A stretch of 44,825 bases of DNA, taken from the IMG/VR virus record IMGVR_UViG_3300048856_000103, positions 1-44,825 of that record, one strand, 5' to 3'. The notes below the pieces were generated by a model. It had not been told where the DNA came from. It did no database searches and saw nothing but the letters and a program-made list of their open reading frames with translations. This document shows positions 30,439 to 44,825 of this stretch, piece after piece. This DNA comes from a virus (taxonomy: Duplodnaviria; Caudoviricetes). How positions within the stretch are numbered: the stretch's first letter is position 1; every line of letters starts with the position of its first letter. The translations under genes and the position numbers were made by a program.

Positions 30439-30801
30439 TCAAGCCGCCTTCCCCATCAGCAAGCCGGCAATGCACTCATGAGCGTGGTGCAGGCGCTGGT
30501 AATAGGTCTTCGAGCTGCAGCGGCAATGCAGCATCTTCTGCGAGAGGAAGCTATCCCGATTGCAGTAATGCTCTCGCACCACCACCGCCAGTTCCGGCGC
30601 CAGATGCTTGTTCACGATCAGCTCGATATCCGCCGATTCATCCAGCAGCACCCGGCTCCCCCGCGTGCCTCGGATCAGCTCGCCCTTGCACTCCATCAGC
30701 ATCGCGATCATGTTGCCGCCGCTCGCACCGGCAATGCCCCGGCACGGTGAATGCAGATCCTCGGCCCACAGCTTCAGCATCTCGTCGATCCGTTTAATCA
30801 T
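30439..30801 (-). CDS. Late-gene regulator, Q-antiterminator/PA0613-like
   Basis: MIKRIDEMLKLWA...EHY...CS.KTYY.RLH.AH C-terminal HTH-like segment; between replication and lysis genes. Confidence 0.65.
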   Translation of the reverse strand: MIKRIDEMLKLWAEDLHSPCRGIAGASGGNMIAMLMECKGELIRGTRGSRVLLDESADIELIVNKHLAPELAVVVREHYCNRDSFLSQKMLHCRCSSKTYYQRLHHAHECIAGLLMGKAA

Positions 30802-33013
30802 CGAAGCAAGGCTCCTCGACTGGATCAAGCACCAGCGCGCTCGGTCCGCCCCAGCCATTCGGCTTTTTGTAGCCCCAAGGCCGTACTCTGCTTTTTGCCA
30901 ACGCAGGCAGGCGCACCCGTCGCCATCCGAGGCGATGCATGATTGCCCCGACGCGCATCTGCTCTGGCTTGCCCCAGTGGCCAAAATCTAGCTTCAGCGC
31001 CTGCGCAAGCACCTCGCACCCGGTCGTGGTTTCGCCGATCTGCGACTCCTCGAGCCACATCAGAATCGGCCCCTCCCATTCATCCACCACAAAGCGCTCG
31101 TCCTGCTCCTCGGTGAACATCCCCGCCTCGTCTTTATTCACCCACCAGCGTTCGCCCGCGAGGTAACACGACATAGCTTCAGCCCAGAGCTGATCCCGAA
31201 ACTCACGCAGTGCATCAATGTCAGCCTTCGTGCATAGCACCGGCCAGTAACGACGGTTGCCGGTGGGATCCTTCAGATACTCGCCTTGGTTCGTCGTGCC
31301 AACGAACACACACTGGCGCGGCACGTCGTTCGTTCTGCGGCCGTAGCTCTCCCGGTAGGTGTCGGTGGACGCCGAGAAGAACTGCTTCGCCTTGGTGCTC
31401 TCTGCCTTGTTGAAACTGTCCAGCTCCCCCAGCTCGATCAGCCATTTGCCGCGCAGCGACATGAATGCCTCCTTGTCCCCGAGCACAAAGGGCGTGTCCA
31501 TGAACCAGTCGCCGCCCAATGCAGCGACAGCTGAGGACTTGCCTTCGCCCTGCAGGCCTTCGAGGATCAGCACGCAATCGGCTTTGCAGCCGGGCTTCAT
31601 CACCCGCGCGACTGCCGCGATCATCCAGCGCTTGGCGACCTTGCTCACATACTCACTGGGCGTGACGCCCATAAAATCCGTTAGCCAGGTATCGAGGCGG
31701 GGCACACGGTCCCATTCCAGTCCGTGCAGATAGTCGCGGACCGGGTGGAAGGAATGGTCATGCGCGACCACGCTCACGGCCTCGATCACGCTGGACGGCT
31801 TCACCCGCAGGTTGTATTGCTGGGCCAGCCACTTCATCACGCGCGTGTCATCAATGTCGGCCCACGCCCCGATATCGCCGCCATAAGGAGCCGTGCGCGA
31901 TTTGACGATCTTTGAACTGAACGCGCAGTAACTGATGACGCCTTTCCATCGCTCATCATTGGCAAGGATCATCTCGACGTTGGACATGTGGGCGATCAAT
32001 GCACCGTTCTCGGTACGCGCAAGACCGTCCTTCCAGCCCCCAGCCGCCGGCGGCTTGATGACCGCGAGCACCTGACGCCGAACAGCCTCAAGCCCTTCCG
32101 CGCAGTGCAGGTCGTTAAAGTCGGTCCACTTGTCGTGACGTTCGCCCGAAAAGACCGGACCCACCACCTGCCCGCCGACGATCAACGCCGCATTCGCGCC
32201 CTTCTCCTCGCCAGGGTTCCACAGCTCGCCATTCGGTCGTTTCGTCTTCCAGTCATCGTCCCGGCACACGATCAGCGGGCGCCCGGGAAAACGATCACGC
32301 ATGGTCTTCGCCACTTCCCGCAGATTGCCCGCGTCGAACGCGACCGCGACCGTTGCCGAAGTGGCCATGTGCAGACTGGCGCCCGTTGCATACCCCTCGC
32401 AGACCAGCACCGGTTCGCCCGGCTCAGGATGCGGACCGATAAGATGGAAAGCCCCCTCTTTGCTCATCCCGTACGGCCAATAGGACTTGTCTCGCCCGGT
32501 ATTCTCCTGCACCTCGGGGAAGATCACCTGCAGACCGACAATCTTGTCGCGGGCATCGCACATCGGCACCAGGACTGCACCCGTGCGCGGTGCATAGCGG
32601 ACGCCGAAACCAACAATCTGTTTGCGGTCCAGGTATAGGCTTTTGCCCTTCTCAGGCATCCGCTTGAACAGGCTGGATGCGCGACTGGCCGCCCGACGAG
32701 CAGCGTTGGCCGCCATCTCCGCAGCCCGCCGCTTCGCCTCCTCCTGCCGGGCGCGCATCACCTCACGCTCCTCCGCAGTCATCCGCCCGGCCTTCACCTT
32801 GATCTTCTGTGACTCGCCGGAGCGCCAGTCGCCAAAGCTGCCAAAAATGAGCGTCTCCCCCTTCTCGGTGCGATGCTCATGCAACACGTACCAGCCGTTC
32901 TTCTCCCTGCCCTTGTCCTGAGACGTCTTGCAGCGAGTCAGCTTGCCGTACACCAGGGGCACAGCGGGCTCCAGACCGTAATCTGCAAGTTGCCCCATTA
33001 CTTCATCAATCAT
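30794..33013 (-). CDS. Primase-helicase (Toprim + VapE/VirE SF3-type helicase)
   Basis: CEGYATG, DDD, TDFNDL; GLQGEGKS, ELGEL, GTTN, DPTGNRRYWP. Confidence 0.92.
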   Translation of the reverse strand: MIDEVMGQLADYGLEPAVPLVYGKLTRCKTSQDKGREKNGWYVLHEHRTEKGETLIFGSFGDWRSGESQKIKVKAGRMTAEEREVMRARQEEAKRRAAEMAANAARRAASRASSLFKRMPEKGKSLYLDRKQIVGFGVRYAPRTGAVLVPMCDARDKIVGLQVIFPEVQENTGRDKSYWPYGMSKEGAFHLIGPHPEPGEPVLVCEGYATGASLHMATSATVAVAFDAGNLREVAKTMRDRFPGRPLIVCRDDDWKTKRPNGELWNPGEEKGANAALIVGGQVVGPVFSGERHDKWTDFNDLHCAEGLEAVRRQVLAVIKPPAAGGWKDGLARTENGALIAHMSNVEMILANDERWKGVISYCAFSSKIVKSRTAPYGGDIGAWADIDDTRVMKWLAQQYNLRVKPSSVIEAVSVVAHDHSFHPVRDYLHGLEWDRVPRLDTWLTDFMGVTPSEYVSKVAKRWMIAAVARVMKPGCKADCVLILEGLQGEGKSSAVAALGGDWFMDTPFVLGDKEAFMSLRGKWLIELGELDSFNKAESTKAKQFFSASTDTYRESYGRRTNDVPRQCVFVGTTNQGEYLKDPTGNRRYWPVLCTKADIDALREFRDQLWAEAMSCYLAGERWWVNKDEAGMFTEEQDERFVVDEWEGPILMWLEESQIGETTTGCEVLAQALKLDFGHWGKPEQMRVGAIMHRLGWRRVRLPALAKSRVRPWGYKKPNGWGGPSALVLDPVEEPCFDD

Positions 33014-33221
33014 GTCGAACTCCCTGTACTTCCAACTTCGTCTGGCACTGCATGCACCGCACGCAGTTGGCAACGGCAAATCGCCGGGGCCAGGGAATCA
33101 AAGCTGCACACCCGACACAAAACATCGATGGGGCCTGAGCCTCGGCAGGCTTACGCGCTGCCAAGGCCAGATCCATCGACTTCAACATCAAGTCATTCGC
33201 AAAGTCGGCGGCGTCAGACAT
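33006..33221 (-). CDS. TraR/DksA C4-type zinc finger protein (PtrB-like)
   Basis: D..DFAND, C..C...IP..RR.....C..C..CQ. Confidence 0.9.
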   Translation of the reverse strand: MSDAADFANDLMLKSMDLALAARKPAEAQAPSMFCVGCAALIPWPRRFAVANCVRCMQCQTKLEVQGVRHD

Positions 33222-33299
33222 GGCACACCCCCAACTTGCGTGTGGCTACCGTTAGTTGTCCACGTAGGAACAATCCTCGGCATTTTTCGGAAAGATCCC

Positions 33300-33539
33300 T
33301 CAGCGTGCGGGGGTCCAATCCTCCAGCCCCATGAGCCGCTTGGCTTCGCCGAACGATAGAATTCGTGCGTCGGCCGGTGGGTTGGAAATGGCGTCCGTGA
33401 GGTACAGAACGCCGCTCGGGATGACCTTCGTTTTGTGCGGAGTATCGAAGACCTGGGAGAAGCCGAAGAAGTCCCGCATACGTTCGGCCAGTTGGGTTTT
33501 GCCGCAGCCTTGTGAGCCCACAACGATTAGGGTTTGCAT
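33300..33539 (-). CDS. Small hypothetical protein with a Walker A-like motif
   Basis: LIVVGSQGCGKT; AAGGA RBS. Confidence 0.6.
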   Translation of the reverse strand: MQTLIVVGSQGCGKTQLAERMRDFFGFSQVFDTPHKTKVIPSGVLYLTDAISNPPADARILSFGEAKRLMGLEDWTPAR

Positions 33540-33667
33540 GCTGTTTTTCCTTTTTGAGTGAATGGGAGTTGCGATGGTGTTTCAAGGAGATATGCGGTAC
33601 GCACACCTCCCCTATTGCTTGAGCAAGCTGAGGGATGGTGGGTGCAGCGCGGTCAACTCGGGCTGGC

Positions 33668-34186
33668 TTATTCACGGTCAGTCCCTCGCGTCGTGCGATG
33701 GACGTAAGTCGCGCGGTTGAGCATCCCGAGCAGGCCCTGAATGCCGCGAAACACCTGCAGGCGAATCTCGGCCATTTCGGAGTCGTTGACTTGCCCGTCA
33801 CCGATGCTTTTCGCCCAGGTGTCCGCCAGATCGGCGACCTGACGGAAGTAAGCAGCGATGCCGACGGTCAACGTCTCAGGCATGTCGCAGGTGTAGGCCT
33901 CGGCCAGCTCCTGCCAGATCGTGTCGCCGACCAGGGCGTGTACAGCGTCGAGAATGCGGCGGTCCTTGGTCAGCTCCAGGATCTCGCCGAACTCCTGCAC
34001 ATTGATCATGTGGCTGGGGTGTGTGGGTGAAAGCTTGTGCTGAAGCGTGGACGCGTTTCTGCCGGTGGTGGCGGCAATTGCAGCGGCGCCCCCGGGGTAG
34101 TCCCGAGCGGCGTGATAGAGCGCTAATTCGAGCGTCAGGACTTCCCTTTGCGCTCGAACAACGGAATTCAGAGCAATACGGCTCAT
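33668..34186 (-). CDS. Phage regulatory CII-family protein
   Basis: ALYHA.RDYPGG, TLQHKLSPT, DG.V...E; downstream of cro. Confidence 0.85.
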   Translation of the reverse strand: MSRIALNSVVRAQREVLTLELALYHAARDYPGGAAAIAATTGRNASTLQHKLSPTHPSHMINVQEFGEILELTKDRRILDAVHALVGDTIWQELAEAYTCDMPETLTVGIAAYFRQVADLADTWAKSIGDGQVNDSEMAEIRLQVFRGIQGLLGMLNRATYVHRTTRGTDRE

Positions 34187-34212
34187 GGCATTAATCCCTT
34201 CAGGTTGCCAGT

Positions 34213-34508
34213 GCCGCGCGGGATGCAATGGTGGTAAATTGCCCGCGTGGCTGAGAGGCCCAAAACGCCGGCTAGACCCGTAAAGTCGAAACCGGCACCG
34301 TGCCGGGGCGGGCAATTCATTTGCTCACCCCTGGCGCAACAGCTGCCCAATCTGTGGTGGAGACGGCAGCAACCAAGGCATCCGTGCCTTGGAATCTCGG
34401 CTAAAACTGACGGTTGTATCGTGGTGTGACCGTTACGTTTTACCGAGACCTGACAGCGTTGTGGTGACGCTGTCGGGGGGAACTGGGCGGCCCTTGGGCC
34501 GCCTTTTT
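34213..34508 (+). ncRNA. Candidate structured non-coding RNA with GUGGUG loops
   Basis: Seven consecutive stems including a terminal terminator; G-U pairs work only on the + strand; 5' end unknown. Confidence 0.55.
34486..34508 (+). terminator. Intrinsic terminator on the + strand, convergent with cro
   Basis: GGCGGCCC-TT-GGGCCGCC-TTTTT. Confidence 0.8.
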
Positions 34509-34511
34509 CTC

Positions 34512-34703
34512 TTAGGCCGCTAGCTGTTTAGTTTCAACGTGGTGAGCGACCTTCAACCTACCTGCGGAAATCGCATGCAGTTCAAACTGACGGAGTCGGG
34601 GGACGTGTTTGCCCCATTGGGAAACAGCGGCAGGGCTGATGCTGAGCGCCTTGGCAAGCCTTGTTTTCCCCTTGAAAAATTTCACGGCGTCTTCGGTAAG
34701 CAT
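34512..34703 (-). CDS. cro: Cro-like repressor
   Basis: DAVKFF.G.T.LA.AL.ISP.AVSQWG..VP..RQ; divergent from cI. Confidence 0.9.
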   Translation of the reverse strand: MLTEDAVKFFKGKTRLAKALSISPAAVSQWGKHVPRLRQFELHAISAGRLKVAHHVETKQLAA

Positions 34704-34732
34704 TGATGGGCTCCTCTAGGTACGGCTCGAAT

Positions 34733-34802
34733 TTAAGTACATTTAATTTTCTTATGCAAGCCCTAAAGATAACTTAATTAAAAAAGTCTTAAGCTAGCTT
34801 AA
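34733..34802. promoter_or_regulatory. OR operator region: three TTAAG-N4-CTTAA sites
   Basis: TTAAGTACATTTAA 34733, TAAAGATAACTTAA 34764, perfect TTAAGCTAGCTTAA 34789. Confidence 0.75.
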
Positions 34803-35428
34803 TGAATATGTCAGAACGCATAGCATTTGCCCTCGCCGAGTCAGGCCGCTCACCCCGTGAGCTGTCCAAGGATATCGGCGTCAGCGTCGCCCGAATCAGT
34901 CAGCTGAAATCGGGTTCAGGAGGAATCAAGGCCGAAAATCTTTTCGCACTTGCCCGTGCCACAGGCTTTTCCCCGCAGTGGATTGCCGATGGCACTGGAT
35001 TAGCAAAAGACACCCACGCCGGTGCCCCAGATTTCAGGCTCATAAGTCAGTTTCGGCCTTCGCGAGACGGTAATCCGGGTGCGCCGATGGCTTTTGATCG
35101 AAAATGGCTACAGAGCATGGGTTTTTCGGAGTCAGCGCTTGAGTACGCCTATCTCCTAGATGGCACCATGGAACCTTCGGTTATTGAGGGAGACCTGGTA
35201 CTTATAGATACCGATCCAGGAAAACTCGAAAGCGGAGGCATTTATTTAGTAGCAAGGTCAGAGACAGAGGCCGTGATTAAGCGATTTCTAAGGACAATGA
35301 CTAATGGTTGGATTATTCGAAGCGACAATGAGAACAAACGCCACTACCCTGATGAAACTGTAGACGAGGATGGAATACTTTCGTTAAAAATTGCGGGACG
35401 CGTCGTCTGGCGTGGCGGTAAAATTTAA
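34802..35428 (+). CDS. cI: CI-like repressor (HTH + S24-like C-terminal domain)
   Basis: N-terminal HTH, W...G.G linker, MEP..GD.VLID, KR, SDN, GRVVW. Confidence 0.9.
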   Translation: MNMSERIAFALAESGRSPRELSKDIGVSVARISQLKSGSGGIKAENLFALARATGFSPQWIADGTGLAKDTHAGAPDFRLISQFRPSRDGNPGAPMAFDRKWLQSMGFSESALEYAYLLDGTMEPSVIEGDLVLIDTDPGKLESGGIYLVARSETEAVIKRFLRTMTNGWIIRSDNENKRHYPDETVDEDGILSLKIAGRVVWRGGKI

Positions 35429-35522
35429 AAGGGACTTTACCTTCGGCGCATGCAGCTAGGCTTAAAGTAAATCATGATAAACATAAATATATAATAACAG
35501 GCATTAGTCCAAGGAGGTCTTT

Positions 35523-36560
35523 GTGGGGTTTTTTACAGAAGATGAAGTGGCAGATCTCAGGATTACACAGATGATCTTGCACGTAGTGGGCGATGAAGAT
35601 TTCATCGCGGAGCCGGTACGCCAGATCGAGCACGAAGAGTTTTTTATAGCTCGAATAATGGATACTGACAGCGATGCGATCTATAGTTTTCGGGATTTGT
35701 CATCGACTAAGTCTCAGCTTGAGCGTATTGCCCAAGGGCATGATACGTTCGAGCATGGTGCACAAAGTCTGTCCGCCGCTTTTTCTCGGATGCACGCTAA
35801 CAACAGTCGTCCCGGCGCATTATTCATATTTGAACTATCAGGCGGCAGCGACAATATCAAGTTATACAGCCTCATTAAGTACGATTACAGCGAGGCGATC
35901 GAGCAAGCAGCGCCGGAAGAAGGGGGACTTCTGCGAAGAATTGTGCACGCTTTTGTTGCGGACAAAAAAGCGATTCAGAAATCTTCGCTGATCAGAATAG
36001 TAAATGGATCAGGTGAGACGCTGGTATCTGCAAAAGACCGCATGAAAAAGGCACCAGAAATAGTTGACTACTTTGCCAACTTCCTTGACGTAGTCAGAAG
36101 CATGTCCGACCAAGAACTTAACACCAAAGTCGTGAAATTACTGCGCGAAACATTGACGCAATGTAGCGCAGATCTTCCAACTTCAGTACCTGTGGCGTTC
36201 GCCGCTGCAAAGTTAGCTATCTCGCAACGGCTCGAAATTTCCGAGGAGGCTATCATAGACGCAGTGCTTGTAGCAGCAGGCAATCCTCAAGATGAGCGAG
36301 TGATTACAAAGCTTCAAAACGCAGCTCGTCGCAAGATCCGAGCTGCGAAGATTGAGAACTTGATCTTTCCTACTGATCAGGCAATTCTAGGACGGCCTCC
36401 TTTAAGAAAGATTCGGACCACCGAAGGTGTAACCCTTCTTTACCCAGACGACGCAGGAATGACGGTGACGCGTCAGACCAAAAATACTGGCGGGGAGATC
36501 ATTACCGTTGATACCGCAGCCGTAACGGAAGACAAGCTTGTTCCTGACAACTCTCGCTAA
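35523..36560 (+). CDS. Nucleoid-associated protein (YejK/NdpA-like)
   Basis: ITQMILHVVG start, GALFIF, SLIKYD, IQKS, YFANFL pattern; AAGGAGG RBS with GTG start; low GC. Confidence 0.65.
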   Translation: MGFFTEDEVADLRITQMILHVVGDEDFIAEPVRQIEHEEFFIARIMDTDSDAIYSFRDLSSTKSQLERIAQGHDTFEHGAQSLSAAFSRMHANNSRPGALFIFELSGGSDNIKLYSLIKYDYSEAIEQAAPEEGGLLRRIVHAFVADKKAIQKSSLIRIVNGSGETLVSAKDRMKKAPEIVDYFANFLDVVRSMSDQELNTKVVKLLRETLTQCSADLPTSVPVAFAAAKLAISQRLEISEEAIIDAVLVAAGNPQDERVITKLQNAARRKIRAAKIENLIFPTDQAILGRPPLRKIRTTEGVTLLYPDDAGMTVTRQTKNTGGEIITVDTAAVTEDKLVPDNSR

Positions 36561-38049
36561 TCAGCTCAACGCCCTCGCAGCCGACTCTGGTGCGCATATC
36601 AGCGAGAGCGATGAATCAATTGCGGTCTCAAATTTAGGCTATGCCGAGGCGAATGAGATACTGGAGCTATGCACTGGTCTCGGATGGCCTTGCGCGGTCT
36701 ATGACGAAGCGGACACGCTTACTGAACCAGGACAGATAGTCGAAGAATTTTCGCCCTTTAGGCTCAGCATCAGAAAGCAATTAAATGCTGGCGGAAGCTT
36801 GAGTCTGGTCACAAGCAAAGGTTTCGCTTATTGGCTAGAACGAGGACACCCTGCTCACTGTTGGCGAGTTTTAGGGTTCGGCAGGGAAATTATTACGCAA
36901 TCGCGCATTTTTACCGACTGGTCAGTTTCCACCGTTACAGATCAATTTCCAGAAACTAAATCGCCTCGCGCATTGGTCAAAGAGCCGGGTGCAATGCAAA
37001 CTGTACCGACTGACATTCGGCCTTGGCTGATTACCGGTCCGACTCAGCCCGACTTTGCCAATGATCTACACCGAATGTGGTGTGTGAAAGCTTTCGATGC
37101 GTTAGTGAGAACTCTTGCTAACGAAATAGATGCTCTAAACGGCTCATTGCTTTTCAAGGGCCCACCTAAGCTGGCCCTAACGCTGAGAGATGTCTCTAAT
37201 TGTTCGCCCACTCCGTTGACTGCTACAGTCTTTACAGACGTACAAGCGGCGGCTTTATGGGTTTATGAAAATTTGCGCGAGGCGGAGTTAAAACACAGCC
37301 TGCTCGCATCAGAGGTTGCTCGCTCTGGACGTGCTGATGAGGAGGCTTCGCTTTATCTGGAAACTAATTTATCCACAGCATTAGAAAGTGCGAAAATAAC
37401 CTATCAGATGTCTTTGTCTGAGCTTGGGAAAGATACGCTTAAATCTTTGAGTGATCTTCGCAAAGCGATAACGGAGGAAACTGCAAAAGTCACAGAAGCA
37501 ACTAGGCAGACGATCACCGCCGTATCCGGCGCGCTGGCCGTCTGCTTGGGGCTACTAGCAGCGCGAGTTACGACTGACCTAAACTCTTGGGTCATCGGCG
37601 TAGTAATGGTAGTCGCTATTGTGTACATCAGAGCGATCATTTACTCGGGAGAGTGCTTTATCCAGGTCCAGCGTGGTTTGCGAAGAGATTGGCAGCCAAA
37701 GCTATACCGTTTTCTTCCTGCGGAAGATTATAGGTTAATGGTTACCGATCCTGCGGAACAAACGGAGAAAGTTTTTAAAATCTCCGCTCGAATCGGGACT
37801 GGAGCCGTCTTGGTAATGTGTTTGGTAGTTCTACTATTTAGTATTTTTGGTCAACCAAGGGCTTCAACTCCCGTCTCAACAGCAGTAAAAGAAGCGGTCC
37901 GTCCAAGCATCCCAGATAGTCACGAAATCCCCAATCGCATTTTCGCTCTGCCCCAGCAGAATCGTCCCGCTGGACGCTGGATCTCTCCACTTGCACTACC
38001 CTCTCCCTCTGCAGCAACTCCCCCGGCGGTACAACGTTTCGACCGATGA
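36538..38049 (+). CDS. Hypothetical protein with coiled coil and three C-terminal TM helices
   Basis: Overlaps the upstream gene; hydrophobic segments AVSGALAVCLGLLA, WVIGVVMVVAIVYI and GAVLVMCLVVLLFSIF. Confidence 0.75.
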   Translation: MFLTTLANQLNALAADSGAHISESDESIAVSNLGYAEANEILELCTGLGWPCAVYDEADTLTEPGQIVEEFSPFRLSIRKQLNAGGSLSLVTSKGFAYWLERGHPAHCWRVLGFGREIITQSRIFTDWSVSTVTDQFPETKSPRALVKEPGAMQTVPTDIRPWLITGPTQPDFANDLHRMWCVKAFDALVRTLANEIDALNGSLLFKGPPKLALTLRDVSNCSPTPLTATVFTDVQAAALWVYENLREAELKHSLLASEVARSGRADEEASLYLETNLSTALESAKITYQMSLSELGKDTLKSLSDLRKAITEETAKVTEATRQTITAVSGALAVCLGLLAARVTTDLNSWVIGVVMVVAIVYIRAIIYSGECFIQVQRGLRRDWQPKLYRFLPAEDYRLMVTDPAEQTEKVFKISARIGTGAVLVMCLVVLLFSIFGQPRASTPVSTAVKEAVRPSIPDSHEIPNRIFALPQQNRPAGRWISPLALPSPSAATPPAVQRFDR

Positions 38050-38137: not shown

Positions 38138-38176
38138 TTAAGCAGTCTTGACAGGTTTATTTAAGTATTCTTTAAT
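38138..38176 (+). promoter_or_regulatory. pL promoter with OL operators
   Basis: TTGACA (38148)-17 bp-TTTAAT (38171), overlapped by TTAAGCAGTCTTGA (38138) and TTAAGTATTCTTTA (38161). Confidence 0.75.
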
Positions 38177-38211
38177 CTCCTCACTCTCCACCACAGAGCT
38201 GAGGCCACACC

Positions 38212-38388
38212 ATGCAAACCACAGCAACCCTGCACGTCCACCCGGCCGCTGCAAGCCCGTTCCAGATCTTCGAGGCGCGCCGCCTGGCGCGTGAGTCAGG
38301 CTGCGCCTTCGTGCCTTCCAAGCCTACCCTGGCAGCGCGAATCCGCACCTTTCCCACCACCCCGGGCGGCGGAGGGCGTGCAGCATGA
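38212..38388 (+). CDS. Small early-left protein (58 aa)
   Basis: MQTTATLHVHPAAA...PGGGGRAA*; GAGG RBS; ATGA overlap with the next gene; not in the ORF track. Confidence 0.65.
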   Translation: MQTTATLHVHPAAASPFQIFEARRLARESGCAFVPSKPTLAARIRTFPTTPGGGGRAA

Positions 38389-39424: not shown

Positions 39425-39751
39425 ATGAACAACTCGAATCAGCCCCCGCTCCGGCTCATCCCTGCGCCGGAAACCGTCACCGTTGAATTGCTCTACCGCA
39501 CCTTCGGCGACGTGCTTATCCCCTTGGAAAAGCTGCGCGCACAGTACTTCCGCAATCTCAACGACCGGTCCTTTCAAGCCGAGATCGAGAGCGGCCGCAT
39601 CCAGTTGCCGGTCACAACCCTGGACACCAGCCGCAAGGCGCCGAAGTTCGTACACATCCGCCACATCGCGGCCTTGATCGACATCCGCGCCTACAAGGCC
39701 GACGAAGAGATGGCCGCCGGAGCATCCGACTCGACCGAATCCACCCAATAA
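39425..39751 (+). CDS. PrtN-family (pyocin activator-like) DNA-binding protein
   Basis: LLYRTFG.VLIPLE.L...YF, I.LP...LD.SRKA...VHI.H.AA.ID. Confidence 0.85.
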   Translation: MNNSNQPPLRLIPAPETVTVELLYRTFGDVLIPLEKLRAQYFRNLNDRSFQAEIESGRIQLPVTTLDTSRKAPKFVHIRHIAALIDIRAYKADEEMAAGASDSTESTQ

Positions 39752-39793
39752 CAAAACCGCCGCCACCACCGGCTCACCATGCGAGAAAGCACT

Positions 39794-40210
39794 ATGACCA
39801 CCATGCAAACATTCGCCCTCATCAGCCTGATCGTGATGGCTGCATTCCTCATCTACCTCGGCTACCGCTTCGGCAACAGGGACGGCCGGAATTACGGCAT
39901 GGAGCTGGGCATGAAGCTCGGACGAAGCGGTCTTGAACCTACGGTGAGGCAACTGCAGGAGAAACTAGATCTCGCTCGCCGCGATTACCTTCGTCTTGAT
40001 CGTCAGTATCACTGCGCCCGCGCCAACGCCACGCTTGGCGGGGCCGAGCGCCAGACGCTGCTGCAGATCGCCAGCAAGCTAAAGGTAGCGTCGGCAACCT
40101 TCGGGGCAATCAACGCCAAGGCACACACCGAGCAGACGATGCAGCTCCGCGAGAAGGCCTTGGCCCTCGCTGAACTCATCGAGCCAGGTGTTCAGGAGCG
40201 TGCCGCATGA
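39794..40210 (+). CDS. Hypothetical protein with N-terminal TM and coiled coil
   Basis: Hydrophobic N-terminus, GY..G..DG. Confidence 0.72.
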   Translation: MTTMQTFALISLIVMAAFLIYLGYRFGNRDGRNYGMELGMKLGRSGLEPTVRQLQEKLDLARRDYLRLDRQYHCARANATLGGAERQTLLQIASKLKVASATFGAINAKAHTEQTMQLREKALALAELIEPGVQERAA

Positions 40211-42952: not shown

Positions 42953-43215
42953 TATTTGATGCGAAAACCGACACCCTCCCCGAGGCGGTGATCAACGGCG
43001 TTGTTTACGAAGGCTTCACCTGTAGCACCCGTGACGGGAATCGCTTGCGCCTGGCGCTGGTAGACGAGAACGGGAATGTTGTCGCGGCCGGTGCCGAGGT
43101 TGAACGGGAGGCATGGAGCGTCTGCATCCAGGTGCAGCATAACTTCTGGATCGGCCAGGGGCATCTGCGCGTACTGAGTAAACCGGTGCCTTTTGCAACG
43201 GAGGACGCCGCTTAA
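42949..43215 (+). CDS. Small hypothetical protein
   Basis: ATGA overlap with the MTase; stop overlaps the recombinase stop. Confidence 0.6.
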   Translation: MIFDAKTDTLPEAVINGVVYEGFTCSTRDGNRLRLALVDENGNVVAAGAEVEREAWSVCIQVQHNFWIGQGHLRVLSKPVPFATEDAA

Positions 43216-44825
43216 GCACCTACGCCCGCCTGCCACTCCCCGGTTGTGCGATTGATCCTTAGCAGCCGGGGTTGGGCACCCTTCCCCACCAGCAGCACGT
43301 CGATGAATTTCCCCTTTCTGTCAGGATCCTGCATCCCTCGGTGATAGATCACGATCCGCTCGAACGTTTCTGAGACCAATTGGCGGGCCTTCATCCGAGC
43401 GCCGTAGTCCAACGCATTGACGCCCTCAACGAGATCCGCCCAGGCTTCAGAAAGCGCCGGCTGACCCCGGTGCGACACGGCCACCAACTCTCTCTCGGCC
43501 TGACCGACCTCCTTCTGCTTCACGGCAAGCTGCGCCTCCAGCTCACGCGCCTTGCGCACGAACACCAGGGGGGCGGCGCCGCTCTCATCTGCCATGAGCG
43601 CCTCGCTCACCCGCTCGATCTGCTGCTCGAGCACGCCGACATCAGCCTTCGCTTTCGCCAACCGCTCGCGAATGGCCTGATTCTGGTCACGTTCCTCCAG
43701 CAGACTGGTGAGGTTCATCTGGTCAGTGCAGTAGGCCATGATCGCTTTCTCGATCGGCACCACGCTGCAGCTTCCACCAACCGGGCAACCTTTGTTGTGC
43801 GAATACCCAACGCAGATCACGCGCCGGTGCCCGTCCGTGATCGAACCGTCGGCCTTGGCACGCTGCATTGAGTTCTGACCAATCATCGCGGTACCGCAAT
43901 AGCCGCAGTACGAGATGTTCAAGCCTGTGAATACACCAGGTATCGCCCCTTTGCCTTTGCGGCGAACGCGACTGTCCACCAGCTGCTGCAGCTCGGCATG
44001 CTGTAGCGGATCGATCAGCGGCGGGTAGTAGCCTTCCATTCTGTAGGTCTCACCGTCGACCTCCAGCTCCTTGGCACCGAGCAACGCAGGCAATCGAACC
44101 AGTCGGTGTACCTGCAGGGACGTGATGCCTTTATCAGTTAGCGCATAGCCCTTTTCACTCAACTCCCGGACGATCCTGACCGAGCCATAACCGCGCATGA
44201 ACAACTCGATCACCGCCCGGGCCGCCGCTACCCTCTCAGGGATCATGTGCCACTGGTTGCCGTCCCACCGGAGCCAAGCGGGGTCTTTACCGTTCCTGAT
44301 CAGGCCTCGGTAGGTCCCGGCGATCCAGTTTTCGCACTGCCGGCGGATCGCGGCTTTCACTCGCTTGGATTTGGTGTCCGACTCTTCATGGGCGCGGATC
44401 ATGACCAAGAGCGAGTACACCAGGTCCATCGGCTGAGCTTTCAAACCCGCACGGTTGTACTCCCGGCCGTCGCTGGCGGTGACGACTGTTATGCCGGCGT
44501 TGATGATTTGGGCGAGTTGGGCTTGAGCTTGAATGGGTTCGGCGCGGCTTAGGCGGTCGAGGCCTTCGACAACCAGGACTGAACCGGGGGAGATCCGGCC
44601 ATCTTCTATCGCGCGAAGGAAAACTCCGAGAGCGCCTTGGGTAACGTGGCGTTGGTGATAGGCGGATAGGCCCTCGTCGCGCAACGAGAGGGACTCATCG
44701 AGTGTCAACCCGGTTTCAGCAGCCCAGCGTTGAGCATATTCATGCTGGCGAACAGCACTACTGCCGGAGGATTGCTTGGGATCGGAAAATCGCAGATAAC
44801 TGTAAACTCTTGCATCATTCCTCAA
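43212..44825 (-). CDS. Large serine recombinase (prophage integrase)
   Basis: YSYLRFS (catalytic Ser), DRLSR, zinc ribbon CGYCG...C, coiled coil; start lies at the window edge. Confidence 0.93.
   Translation of the reverse strand: MRNDARVYSYLRFSDPKQSSGSSAVRQHEYAQRWAAETGLTLDESLSLRDEGLSAYHQRHVTQGALGVFLRAIEDGRISPGSVLVVEGLDRLSRAEPIQAQAQLAQIINAGITVVTASDGREYNRAGLKAQPMDLVYSLLVMIRAHEESDTKSKRVKAAIRRQCENWIAGTYRGLIRNGKDPAWLRWDGNQWHMIPERVAAARAVIELFMRGYGSVRIVRELSEKGYALTDKGITSLQVHRLVRLPALLGAKELEVDGETYRMEGYYPPLIDPLQHAELQQLVDSRVRRKGKGAIPGVFTGLNISYCGYCGTAMIGQNSMQRAKADGSITDGHRRVICVGYSHNKGCPVGGSCSVVPIEKAIMAYCTDQMNLTSLLEERDQNQAIRERLAKAKADVGVLEQQIERVSEALMADESGAAPLVFVRKARELEAQLAVKQKEVGQAERELVAVSHRGQPALSEAWADLVEGVNALDYGARMKARQLVSETFERIVIYHRGMQDPDRKGKFIDVLLVGKGAQPRLLRINRTTGEWQAGVGA

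Follow-up and report, generated by a model that had tools for sequence, protein, structure and literature searches.

A conserved RNA encoded between cro and cII of Pseudomonas prophages and its likely pairing with the early-left leader

Temperate-phage switches are usually described through the proteins CI, Cro and CII, and to our knowledge RNA layers are known in detail for only a few enterobacterial phages (P1/P7 c4, P4 CI, P22 sar and lambda OOP). We asked what is encoded in the 325-bp gap between cro and cII (34187-34511) of a Pseudomonas prophage, for which an initial annotation had proposed a previously unannotated small RNA. The window, by which we mean the whole stretch of DNA analysed, corresponds to a complete provirus record in IMG/VR (44,825 bp), and its relatives were all found within Pseudomonas genomes. 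We found that the gap encodes a real, expressed and conserved prophage RNA. We consider it likely that this RNA is a conserved + strand sRNA of the c4 kind, whose apical loops would pair with the leader and start of the early-left operon and so bar ribosome loading.

The immunity region of the window has a lambda layout. The cI-type repressor (34802-35428, + strand) carries an HTH and an S24 peptidase domain (Pfam PF01381 and PF00717), and the divergent cro gene (34512-34703, - strand; stop codon 34512-34514) belongs to the P22_Cro family (PF14549, E 7.6e-18). On the far side of the gap, cII (33668-34186, - strand) was assigned to the Phage_CP76 family (PF06892, E 9.2e-21) and to PHROG 101, CII-like activator. 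It is followed by small genes and a Toprim/VapE primase (30794-33079, - strand); a DksA-like zinc-finger protein is encoded between cII and the primase at 33006-33221. Between cI and the early-left promoter there are two + strand ORFs of 345 and 503 aa (35523-38049), neither of which gave a Pfam, PHROG or PADLOC match. This stretch looks like an inserted accessory module; the distance from leader to RNA gene is mostly far shorter in relatives (1.1-4.8 kb). We also observed a 16-mer of the type TTTAAGTA....TTTAA in the cI-cro spacer (34732-34747) and over the -10 of the early-left promoter (38160-38175), which makes it a candidate for an operator shared by the two. The count of this 16-mer (three found, 0.03 expected) is circular because the pattern was derived from those two sites.

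The gap had been described as a chain of stems, and every one of these stems was recovered, either at the same coordinates or a few bases off. The + strand of 34187-34515 folds to -166 kcal/mol (z -6.75), with none of 100 shuffles as good, and the - strand folds to -144.9 kcal/mol (z -5.09). We collected 160 related loci via the cII protein. The whole element was present in 149 of them (77-91% identity); leaving the window aside, these amount to 143 distinct sequences, and 48 maximally diverse sequences were aligned (alignment A1). The RNAalifold consensus structure of A1 contains 81 pairs, with 97.4% of the cells paired and compensatory changes in 31 pairs. Covariation in homologous cro-cII gaps is thus well above what shuffling produces (15.2 ± 2.0 double-change pairs, with 0/500 shuffles reaching 31). 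When pairing partners were slid by one to three columns, only 6-10 double-change pairs were found and 41-50% of the cells were paired. The result was the same within the predicted transcript: 66 pairs, 97.0% paired, 29 with double changes, against 13.6 ± 1.9 in shuffles (0/500 reach 29) and 6-9 with slid partners (40-46% paired).

The covarying structure also indicates the strand. The 3877 pair cells hold 405 G.U and 53 A.C combinations, and it follows that the selected structure is on the + strand; reading on + leaves 97.4% of the cells paired, against 88.3% on -. A pair of the terminator stem (323-333: GU 27, AU 19, GC 2) fits the + strand only, and the sole terminator-like hairpin with a T tract, at 34485-34504, is on + as well. 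The two arguments for this strand made in the initial annotation, from G-U pairs and from the U tract, were therefore both borne out.

All hairpins of the RNA are given here as read on the + strand, with pair numbers from A1. The 5' hairpin (GGCU-GAGA-GGCC, 34249-34260) corresponds to helix 63-67/72-76, which is 97.4% paired and alternates between U.G and U-A. Hairpin H3 (34300-34337) is built from helices 119-127/148-157 and 130-134/140-144, and it covaries at pairs 125-150 (AU 29, GC 14), 131-143 (AU 27, GC 13) and 133-141 (AU 28, GC 19). The stem of H4 (34342-34370) is 100% paired; its loop stretch at 34351-34363 reads TCTGTGGTGGAGA, and TCTGTGGT in this hairpin is invariant among the 48 sequences of A1. 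H5 (34373-34392) has an invariant UCCG loop and compensatory changes in 5/7 pairs, among them 206-212 (AU 28, UA 16). In the long hairpin H6 (34395-34448) the helices 225-229/275-279, 234-235/270-271 and 239-243/261-265 all covary. The H6 apex is GCA-UGUGGUG-UGC in relatives and divergent in the window, where 34420-34428 reads CGTGGTGTG. H7 (34449-34477; loop UUGUGGUGA, 34459-34467) has compensatory changes in 5/11 pairs and frequent G.U at pairs 288-302 and 290-300.

Four motif copies had been noted in the gap, GTGGTG at 34354, 34421 and 34461 and TGGTGG at 34229. The three GTGGTG copies do lie in loops, and one heptamer, UGUGGUG, is invariant in three apical loops of the family. Loop conservation in related prophages, on which the earlier proposal had staked itself, was found throughout: across 144 sequences the loops are invariant or nearly so, with TCTGTGGTGGA, GCATGTGGTGTGC and CTGTGGTG almost unchanged. 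We considered a coding reading of the gap and rejected it. A 60-aa frame from GTG 34247 meets a stop after two codons in 109/144 relatives, and the lengths of the element vary without keeping to multiples of three.

The putative promoter of the RNA is an extended -10-like motif, TGnTAAATT, at 34232-34240 on the + strand (TG at 34232-33, hexamer TAAATT at 34235-40). We infer its role from conservation only, as the pattern T..TG.TA.ATT (34229-34240) is invariant in the 48 relatives and at least 99% kept in the 144; a consensus scan did not list a sigma-70 promoter for the RNA, and there is no good -35 at 17 nt. The start is predicted at the invariant G34247, and the predicted sRNA, of about 264 nt, runs on the + strand to the T tract (34247-34510). 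The inverted repeat at 34213-34251 (+ strand; pairs 32-60 and 34-58 of A1, a few compensatory changes) had been taken as the first stem of the RNA. The repeat is present, but it encloses the -10 motif and lies upstream of the predicted start, so that it is probably promoter DNA and not RNA, its TGGTGG at 34229 included. At the other end, a terminator scan found an intrinsic terminator at 34485-34510 (+ strand), with a stem at 34485-34504 followed by a T tract that is invariant among relatives; its end lies three bases away from the stop codon of cro. We also noted two invariant blocks, CGGCTCATGGCATTAATCC and GTTGCCAGTGCC, within 34178-34215, which take in the start and ribosome site of cII as well as the DNA immediately before the RNA promoter. 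These could be an activator binding site or part of cII translation control.

Expression was examined in public metatranscriptomes, many of which match small shares of a 1.2-kb stretch in a run index. Contigs were placed on 33600-34800 for eight RNA-labelled runs from eight studies (soil, leaf litter, phyllosphere and plant). In 8/8 runs every contig on this stretch fell within 34188-34488; the contigs carry no strand. None was found on cII or cro in any of the eight runs, where uncovered parts are not proof of silence. The window-like contigs cover 34258-34458, 34279-34488, 34259-34442, 34285-34483, 34280-34454, 34258-34475, 34267-34454 and 34188-34464. Five further contigs are pieces of divergent relatives, with depths of up to 94 and 441. 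Contig sizes were 122-277 nt, plus one contig of 471 nt; the latter comes from a divergent relative in run X11 (depth 441) and overlaps by only 53 nt. As the contigs are whole short records and not the ends of longer ones, the gap RNA was assembled where its flanks were not.

Those RNA-run contigs that start inside the predicted sRNA jointly cover 34258-34488. Three of them, from three studies, begin at 34258 or 34259, that is 11-12 nt past the predicted start, the true ends not being given by contigs. The inverted repeat at 34213-34251 lies upstream of the contig left ends in 7/8 runs. The exception is run X2, for which the RNA label is a guess. Its contig has its left end at 34188, one base away from the start codon of cII and 59 nt upstream of the predicted RNA start, which it does not fit; this contig (34188-34464) may represent a longer isoform, - strand mRNA or DNA. 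On the evidence of RNA-labelled contigs, which come without strand or ends, the gap RNA was found as a discrete and abundant species in RNA samples from the environment. Covariation, G.U bias, terminator orientation and the confinement of RNA contigs to the gap together support both parts of the original proposal, that there is an unannotated + strand prophage sRNA and that it lies antisense, by position, to the cro-cII transcript.

What the loops might pair with was sought downstream. A promoter-like site with TTGACA (38148-53), a 17-nt spacer and TTTAAT (38171-76) can be read on the + strand at 38148-38176, and we take it to be the putative early-left promoter. The 5' leader behind it contains TCTCCACCACAGA (site A, 38185-38197, + strand), an exact 13-nt complement of the H4 loop stretch 34351-34363 that ends 4 nt before a GAGG ribosome site (38201-38204). 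Site A is the best H4 duplex of the 10.3 kb downstream (-31.3 kcal/mol). None of 500 dinucleotide shuffles of these 10.3 kb reached 13 nt (maximum 11), and neither did any of 300 mononucleotide shuffles; the wrong strand gave 7. A neighbour-swap shuffle reached at least 13 nt in 7/300 cases, but such a shuffle randomises poorly, and the site can survive it unbroken.

Within the window, H4 is the one loop with a strong pairing; the other two loops have weak partner sites. Over the start codon, CACACCATG (38206-38214, + strand) could form nine pairs, one of them G.U, with the H6 apex CGTGGTGTG; this match was picked by eye only and is not statistically distinguished. No exact complement of at least 9 nt was found in the window for H6 or H7. 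A whole-hairpin duplex search with H6, H7, the 5' hairpin and the linker returned only GC-rich pairings of stem to mRNA with no evident meaning. At the place of a third site (site C, 39759-39796, + strand), the window has a hairpin GCCG-CCACCAC-CGGC (39759-39773) and the site itself is degenerate; GCACACCACATG, present at this place in 58/64 relatives, is absent from the window.

The sites are clearer in the family, where we surveyed 64 loci whose flanks are 2 kb or longer. In 62/64, a stretch of at least 9 nt (9-17 nt) is complementary to the H4 loop. In 51/64, a complement of the H6 apex of at least 9 nt (site B) follows 23-30 nt past the H4 site, and in 50 its first base is 1-2 nt past the A of the start codon. 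Another 1.5-2.1 kb on, 58/64 have a third site, 12 nt or longer, that starts at the ribosome site and reaches into the start codon of a gene encoding a membrane-type protein of about 139 aa. Matches to H7 (mostly 9 nt) exceeded the maximum of 20 shuffles in only 2/64 loci and are no longer than chance. The leader is kept from CTCACTC onward while the promoters upstream of it differ from phage to phage, and in relatives, TTGACA-type sites are spaced from the conserved leader as in the window.

The H4 loop and the leader also vary together. Seventeen relatives have the H4 loop GUGGUAAG instead of GUGGUGGA, and the corresponding leaders have UUACCACAG instead of CCACCACAG. We compared the two RNA nucleotides after CUGUGGU with the two leader nucleotides before ACCACAG in 90 distinct combinations of RNA and leader (58/150 loci had no recognisable leader in the flank). 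RNAs with GG faced the complementary CC in 69 combinations, UU in none and another dinucleotide in five; RNAs with AA faced the complementary UU in nine, CC in none and another dinucleotide in seven. Thus 7/16 AA-type RNAs face leaders without full complementarity, and the AA/UU variant may go back to a single ancestral event. Among the 90 combinations, hardly any two leaders have the same promoter stretch upstream. Since RNA and leader are split by the mosaic immunity region, with almost as many promoters as loci, the match has been kept through recombination. The length of the H4 flank pairing (9-17 nt) varies mostly by changes in the RNA against a constant leader and on its own is weak evidence of co-evolution. 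As to the window, its H6 apex (34413-34430) is unlike that of all 63 other viral loci examined, and its sites B and C are altered too (38206-38225, with C-to-A in codon 2, and 39775-39800, with a shortened site C). Either the apex and both sites have decayed together, or the RNA has been re-targeted.

The operon behind this leader begins with a 58-aa gene (38212-38388, + strand; PHROG 35204 of no known function, E 6.6e-23), relatives of which were found in only two loci, too few for an anchor. It also encodes a 195-aa protein with a PHROG match of unknown function. The third gene has a KilAC antirepressor-like match of 23.2 bits against a Pfam cut-off of 25.3. Further on are a PrtN (pyocin activator)/excisionase-like protein (39425-39751) and a 138-aa membrane-type protein (39794-40210, + strand, ATG 39794), followed by a nucleotidase-like protein and a DNA methylase. 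A large serine recombinase, as integrase, is encoded on the opposite strand at 43212-44825.

From these data we favour the reading in which the RNA acts as c4 does. Of the two options left open in the initial annotation, the loop-pairing one (P1 C4/P4 CI logic) gained support from the 13-nt exact H4 complement in the leader and from the co-variation of loop and leader. The apical loops would pair with the leader and start region of the early-left operon in the cell, and ribosome entry at the paired leader would be blocked. Polarity might perhaps extend repression to downstream genes, including the PrtN/excisionase-like gene, and in a lysogen the RNA would add a layer to CI repression. The cro-cII transcript runs across the RNA gene on the opposite strand, which makes the RNA fully complementary to the cro-cII mRNA over about 260 nt, so a second role in cis, against this mRNA, is possible.

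A wider reading starts from the identity of loops and leader across prophages with unrelated cI and cro, by which a resident prophage would silence heteroimmune relatives. The RNA might then be a family-wide immunity layer independent of repressor specificity, acting on the early-left operon of superinfecting heteroimmune relatives and, through the antisense overlap, on their cro-cII transcript. We put this forward tentatively, as a possible extension that we would not yet bet on. If it is true, few prophage products in natural Pseudomonas populations would be expressed more highly than this RNA, judging from its abundance in soil and leaf metatranscriptomes.

We think it unlikely that the RNA acts in cis only, as a long antisense of the cro-cII transcript that sets the level of cII and downstream lytic genes by cleavage or interference, with the leader matches incidental. 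Full complementarity follows from position, and the + strand terminator stops the RNA just before cro. The distribution of the element fits such a role as well. It travels with cII and the primase, which are present in 160/160 loci, while cro and cI are exchanged (the window's cro was found in three loci and its cI in four of the 160). Homology among relatives ends exactly at the terminator T tract, beside the cro stop codon (34505-34514); the element therefore belongs to the cII-replication module, and the RNA gene marks a mosaic joint between the cII-primase module and the exchangeable cro/cI genes. However, an antisense acting in cis has no need of an invariant loop sequence common to three hairpins, and it leaves unexplained why the leader sites exist and why they co-vary with the loop across 1.1 kb or more of mosaic DNA. 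Two loci, L009 (1862-2500) and L024 (1846-2500), moreover have an extra gene between the RNA element and cII. This ORF of 100 or 89 aa, also found in L007, starts right past the conserved ribosome site, and in L007 and L009 a 50-nt piece of the element is duplicated beside cII. The cis and trans roles are in any case compatible with each other.

Beyond these loci, the RNA gene was matched in 65/401 sampled Pseudomonas species genomes, a few of the matches covering the terminator only. In a class-level sample (blastn), 1/400 scored genomes matched, and this was the centre genome itself; blastn gave no match of the gap in cultured phages. Weaker matches in six genomes (G235, G006, G348, G043, G167 and G356) cover the 3' part only, from about base 92-122 to 261 of the 264-nt query, and represent more distant family members with a different 5' part.

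The other option of the initial annotation, a protein sponge of the CsrB/RsmZ kind, found no support. In this reading the RNA is a sponge or scaffold that offers three UGUGGUG copies to a host or phage RNA-binding protein. The invariance of one heptamer in three apical loops would suit it, as would the abundance of the RNA in environmental samples. The CsrA/RsmA motif GGA is, however, not the repeated element, we know of no RNA-binding protein for UGUGGUG, and the complementary, co-varying mRNA sites are a sufficient reason for conservation: the repeated GUGGUG would be kept because these sites exist. We regard a sponge as very unlikely.

It is hardly probable, too, that the structure serves the - strand, as a cro-cII mRNA leader in which nut-like or attenuator hairpins with CACCACA loops control read-through or cII translation. 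Lambda nutR/tR1 occupies the same position as the gap, the - strand fold does beat its shuffles (z -5.09), and there is an invariant block around the cII ribosome site (34178-34215). Against this, 9% of the pair cells are mismatched on - (405 G.U against 53 A.C), pair 323-333 (GU 27, AU 19) fits + only, and only on + does a T tract come after the last hairpin. The early-left sites are on + and can be paired by a + strand RNA only. Finally, a role of the repeats as DNA, as iterons or operators bound by the product of an adjacent replication or regulatory gene, is suggested by TGTGGTG-type repeats beside the primase/helicase module but is barely credible, since base pairing is kept by compensatory changes that protein sites do not need, a discrete RNA is seen, and TGTGGTG is not enriched across the window (8 found, 5.3 expected). 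CACCAC is enriched across the window (41 against 21.8 expected), with most copies within genes.

What is new here is the metatranscriptome evidence of a discrete RNA and the comparison of GG/CC with AA/UU combinations, natural compensatory variants that point to the base pairs of interest. If the RNA does repress the early-left operon, this would explain the silence of excision and other early functions in prophages. Phages that differ in their repressors could then also be cross-immune, and a compact, programmable three-loop regulator would become available for Pseudomonas.

We compared the gap RNA with known systems. The Rfam C4 family (RF01695) comprises c4 of P1/P7 with the CI RNA of P4 and the CA RNA of N15. 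In an Rfam cmscan of 33000-36000 with E up to 10, no C4 match was found; the only matches were SorX, ZMP-ZTP and COG3860, all below their gathering scores. SorX (RF02784; 25.1 against 46.6 bits) was rejected as a candidate, its match being to the last hairpin and terminator only. No description of such a Pseudomonas RNA was found in full-text searches of openly available papers or in passages of a review of phage small RNAs from 2025 (PMC12197685); the review's table gives only PAK_P4as15 for Pseudomonas.

Several hairpins with one short motif are a feature that the gap RNA has in common with CsrB/RsmZ. Those RNAs present GGA in 5 to over 20 copies, whereas the gap RNA has UGUGGUG in three copies and complementary mRNA sites, and its GGA occurs only in the H4 loop and two linkers. 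A lambda-type nut site or tR1 would have its structure selected on the - strand mRNA; here the selected pairs are 97.4% paired on + against 88.3% on -.

Among cis-encoded antisense RNAs, OOP RNA of lambda is antisense to cII, and sar of P22 is a small antisense RNA that blocks translation initiation of a gene upsetting lysogeny (PMC12197685). Like RNAs of this type, the gap RNA lies opposite another transcript, the cro-cII spacer, with full overlap by position. Like OOP, it is a short transcript of the cII region that opposes the rightward early transcript and stops at a terminator of its own. OOP is 77 nt long and covers the cII 3' end; the gap RNA, in contrast, is about 264 nt long, covers the untranslated cro-cII spacer and has matching sites in another operon. 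It also differs from sar, a true cis antisense of the ant start, in that its matched sites are 3.7 kb away on another transcript.

The closest parallel is c4 of P1/P7, an RNA with two pairing loops that RNase P matures from a longer precursor. Made in the lysogen as a second layer of immunity, it pairs through its hairpin loops with sites flanking the ribosome-binding region of another phage operon. That c4 targets ant mRNA by sequence-specific binding is stated in the review (PMC12197685). The gap RNA would pair likewise: its H4 complement is 4 nt before the ribosome site, and a second site follows in 51/64 relatives, starting 1-2 nt past the A of the start codon in 50 of them. The two also differ. 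While c4 is 77 nt long, the gap RNA is about 264 nt long with seven hairpins, three of them with candidate pairing loops. It has its own predicted promoter and terminator between cro and cII and, unlike c4, does not head the operon that it would control. Its loops are invariant across heteroimmune phages, while those of c4 define immunity type. The c4 target is the antirepressor operon icd-ant; the first two genes of the candidate operon of the gap RNA have no known function, and the third has the sub-threshold KilAC antirepressor-like match. Unrelated in sequence and structure to c4, P4 CI, sar and OOP alike and standing outside the C4 family, the gap RNA nevertheless likely works in the same way.
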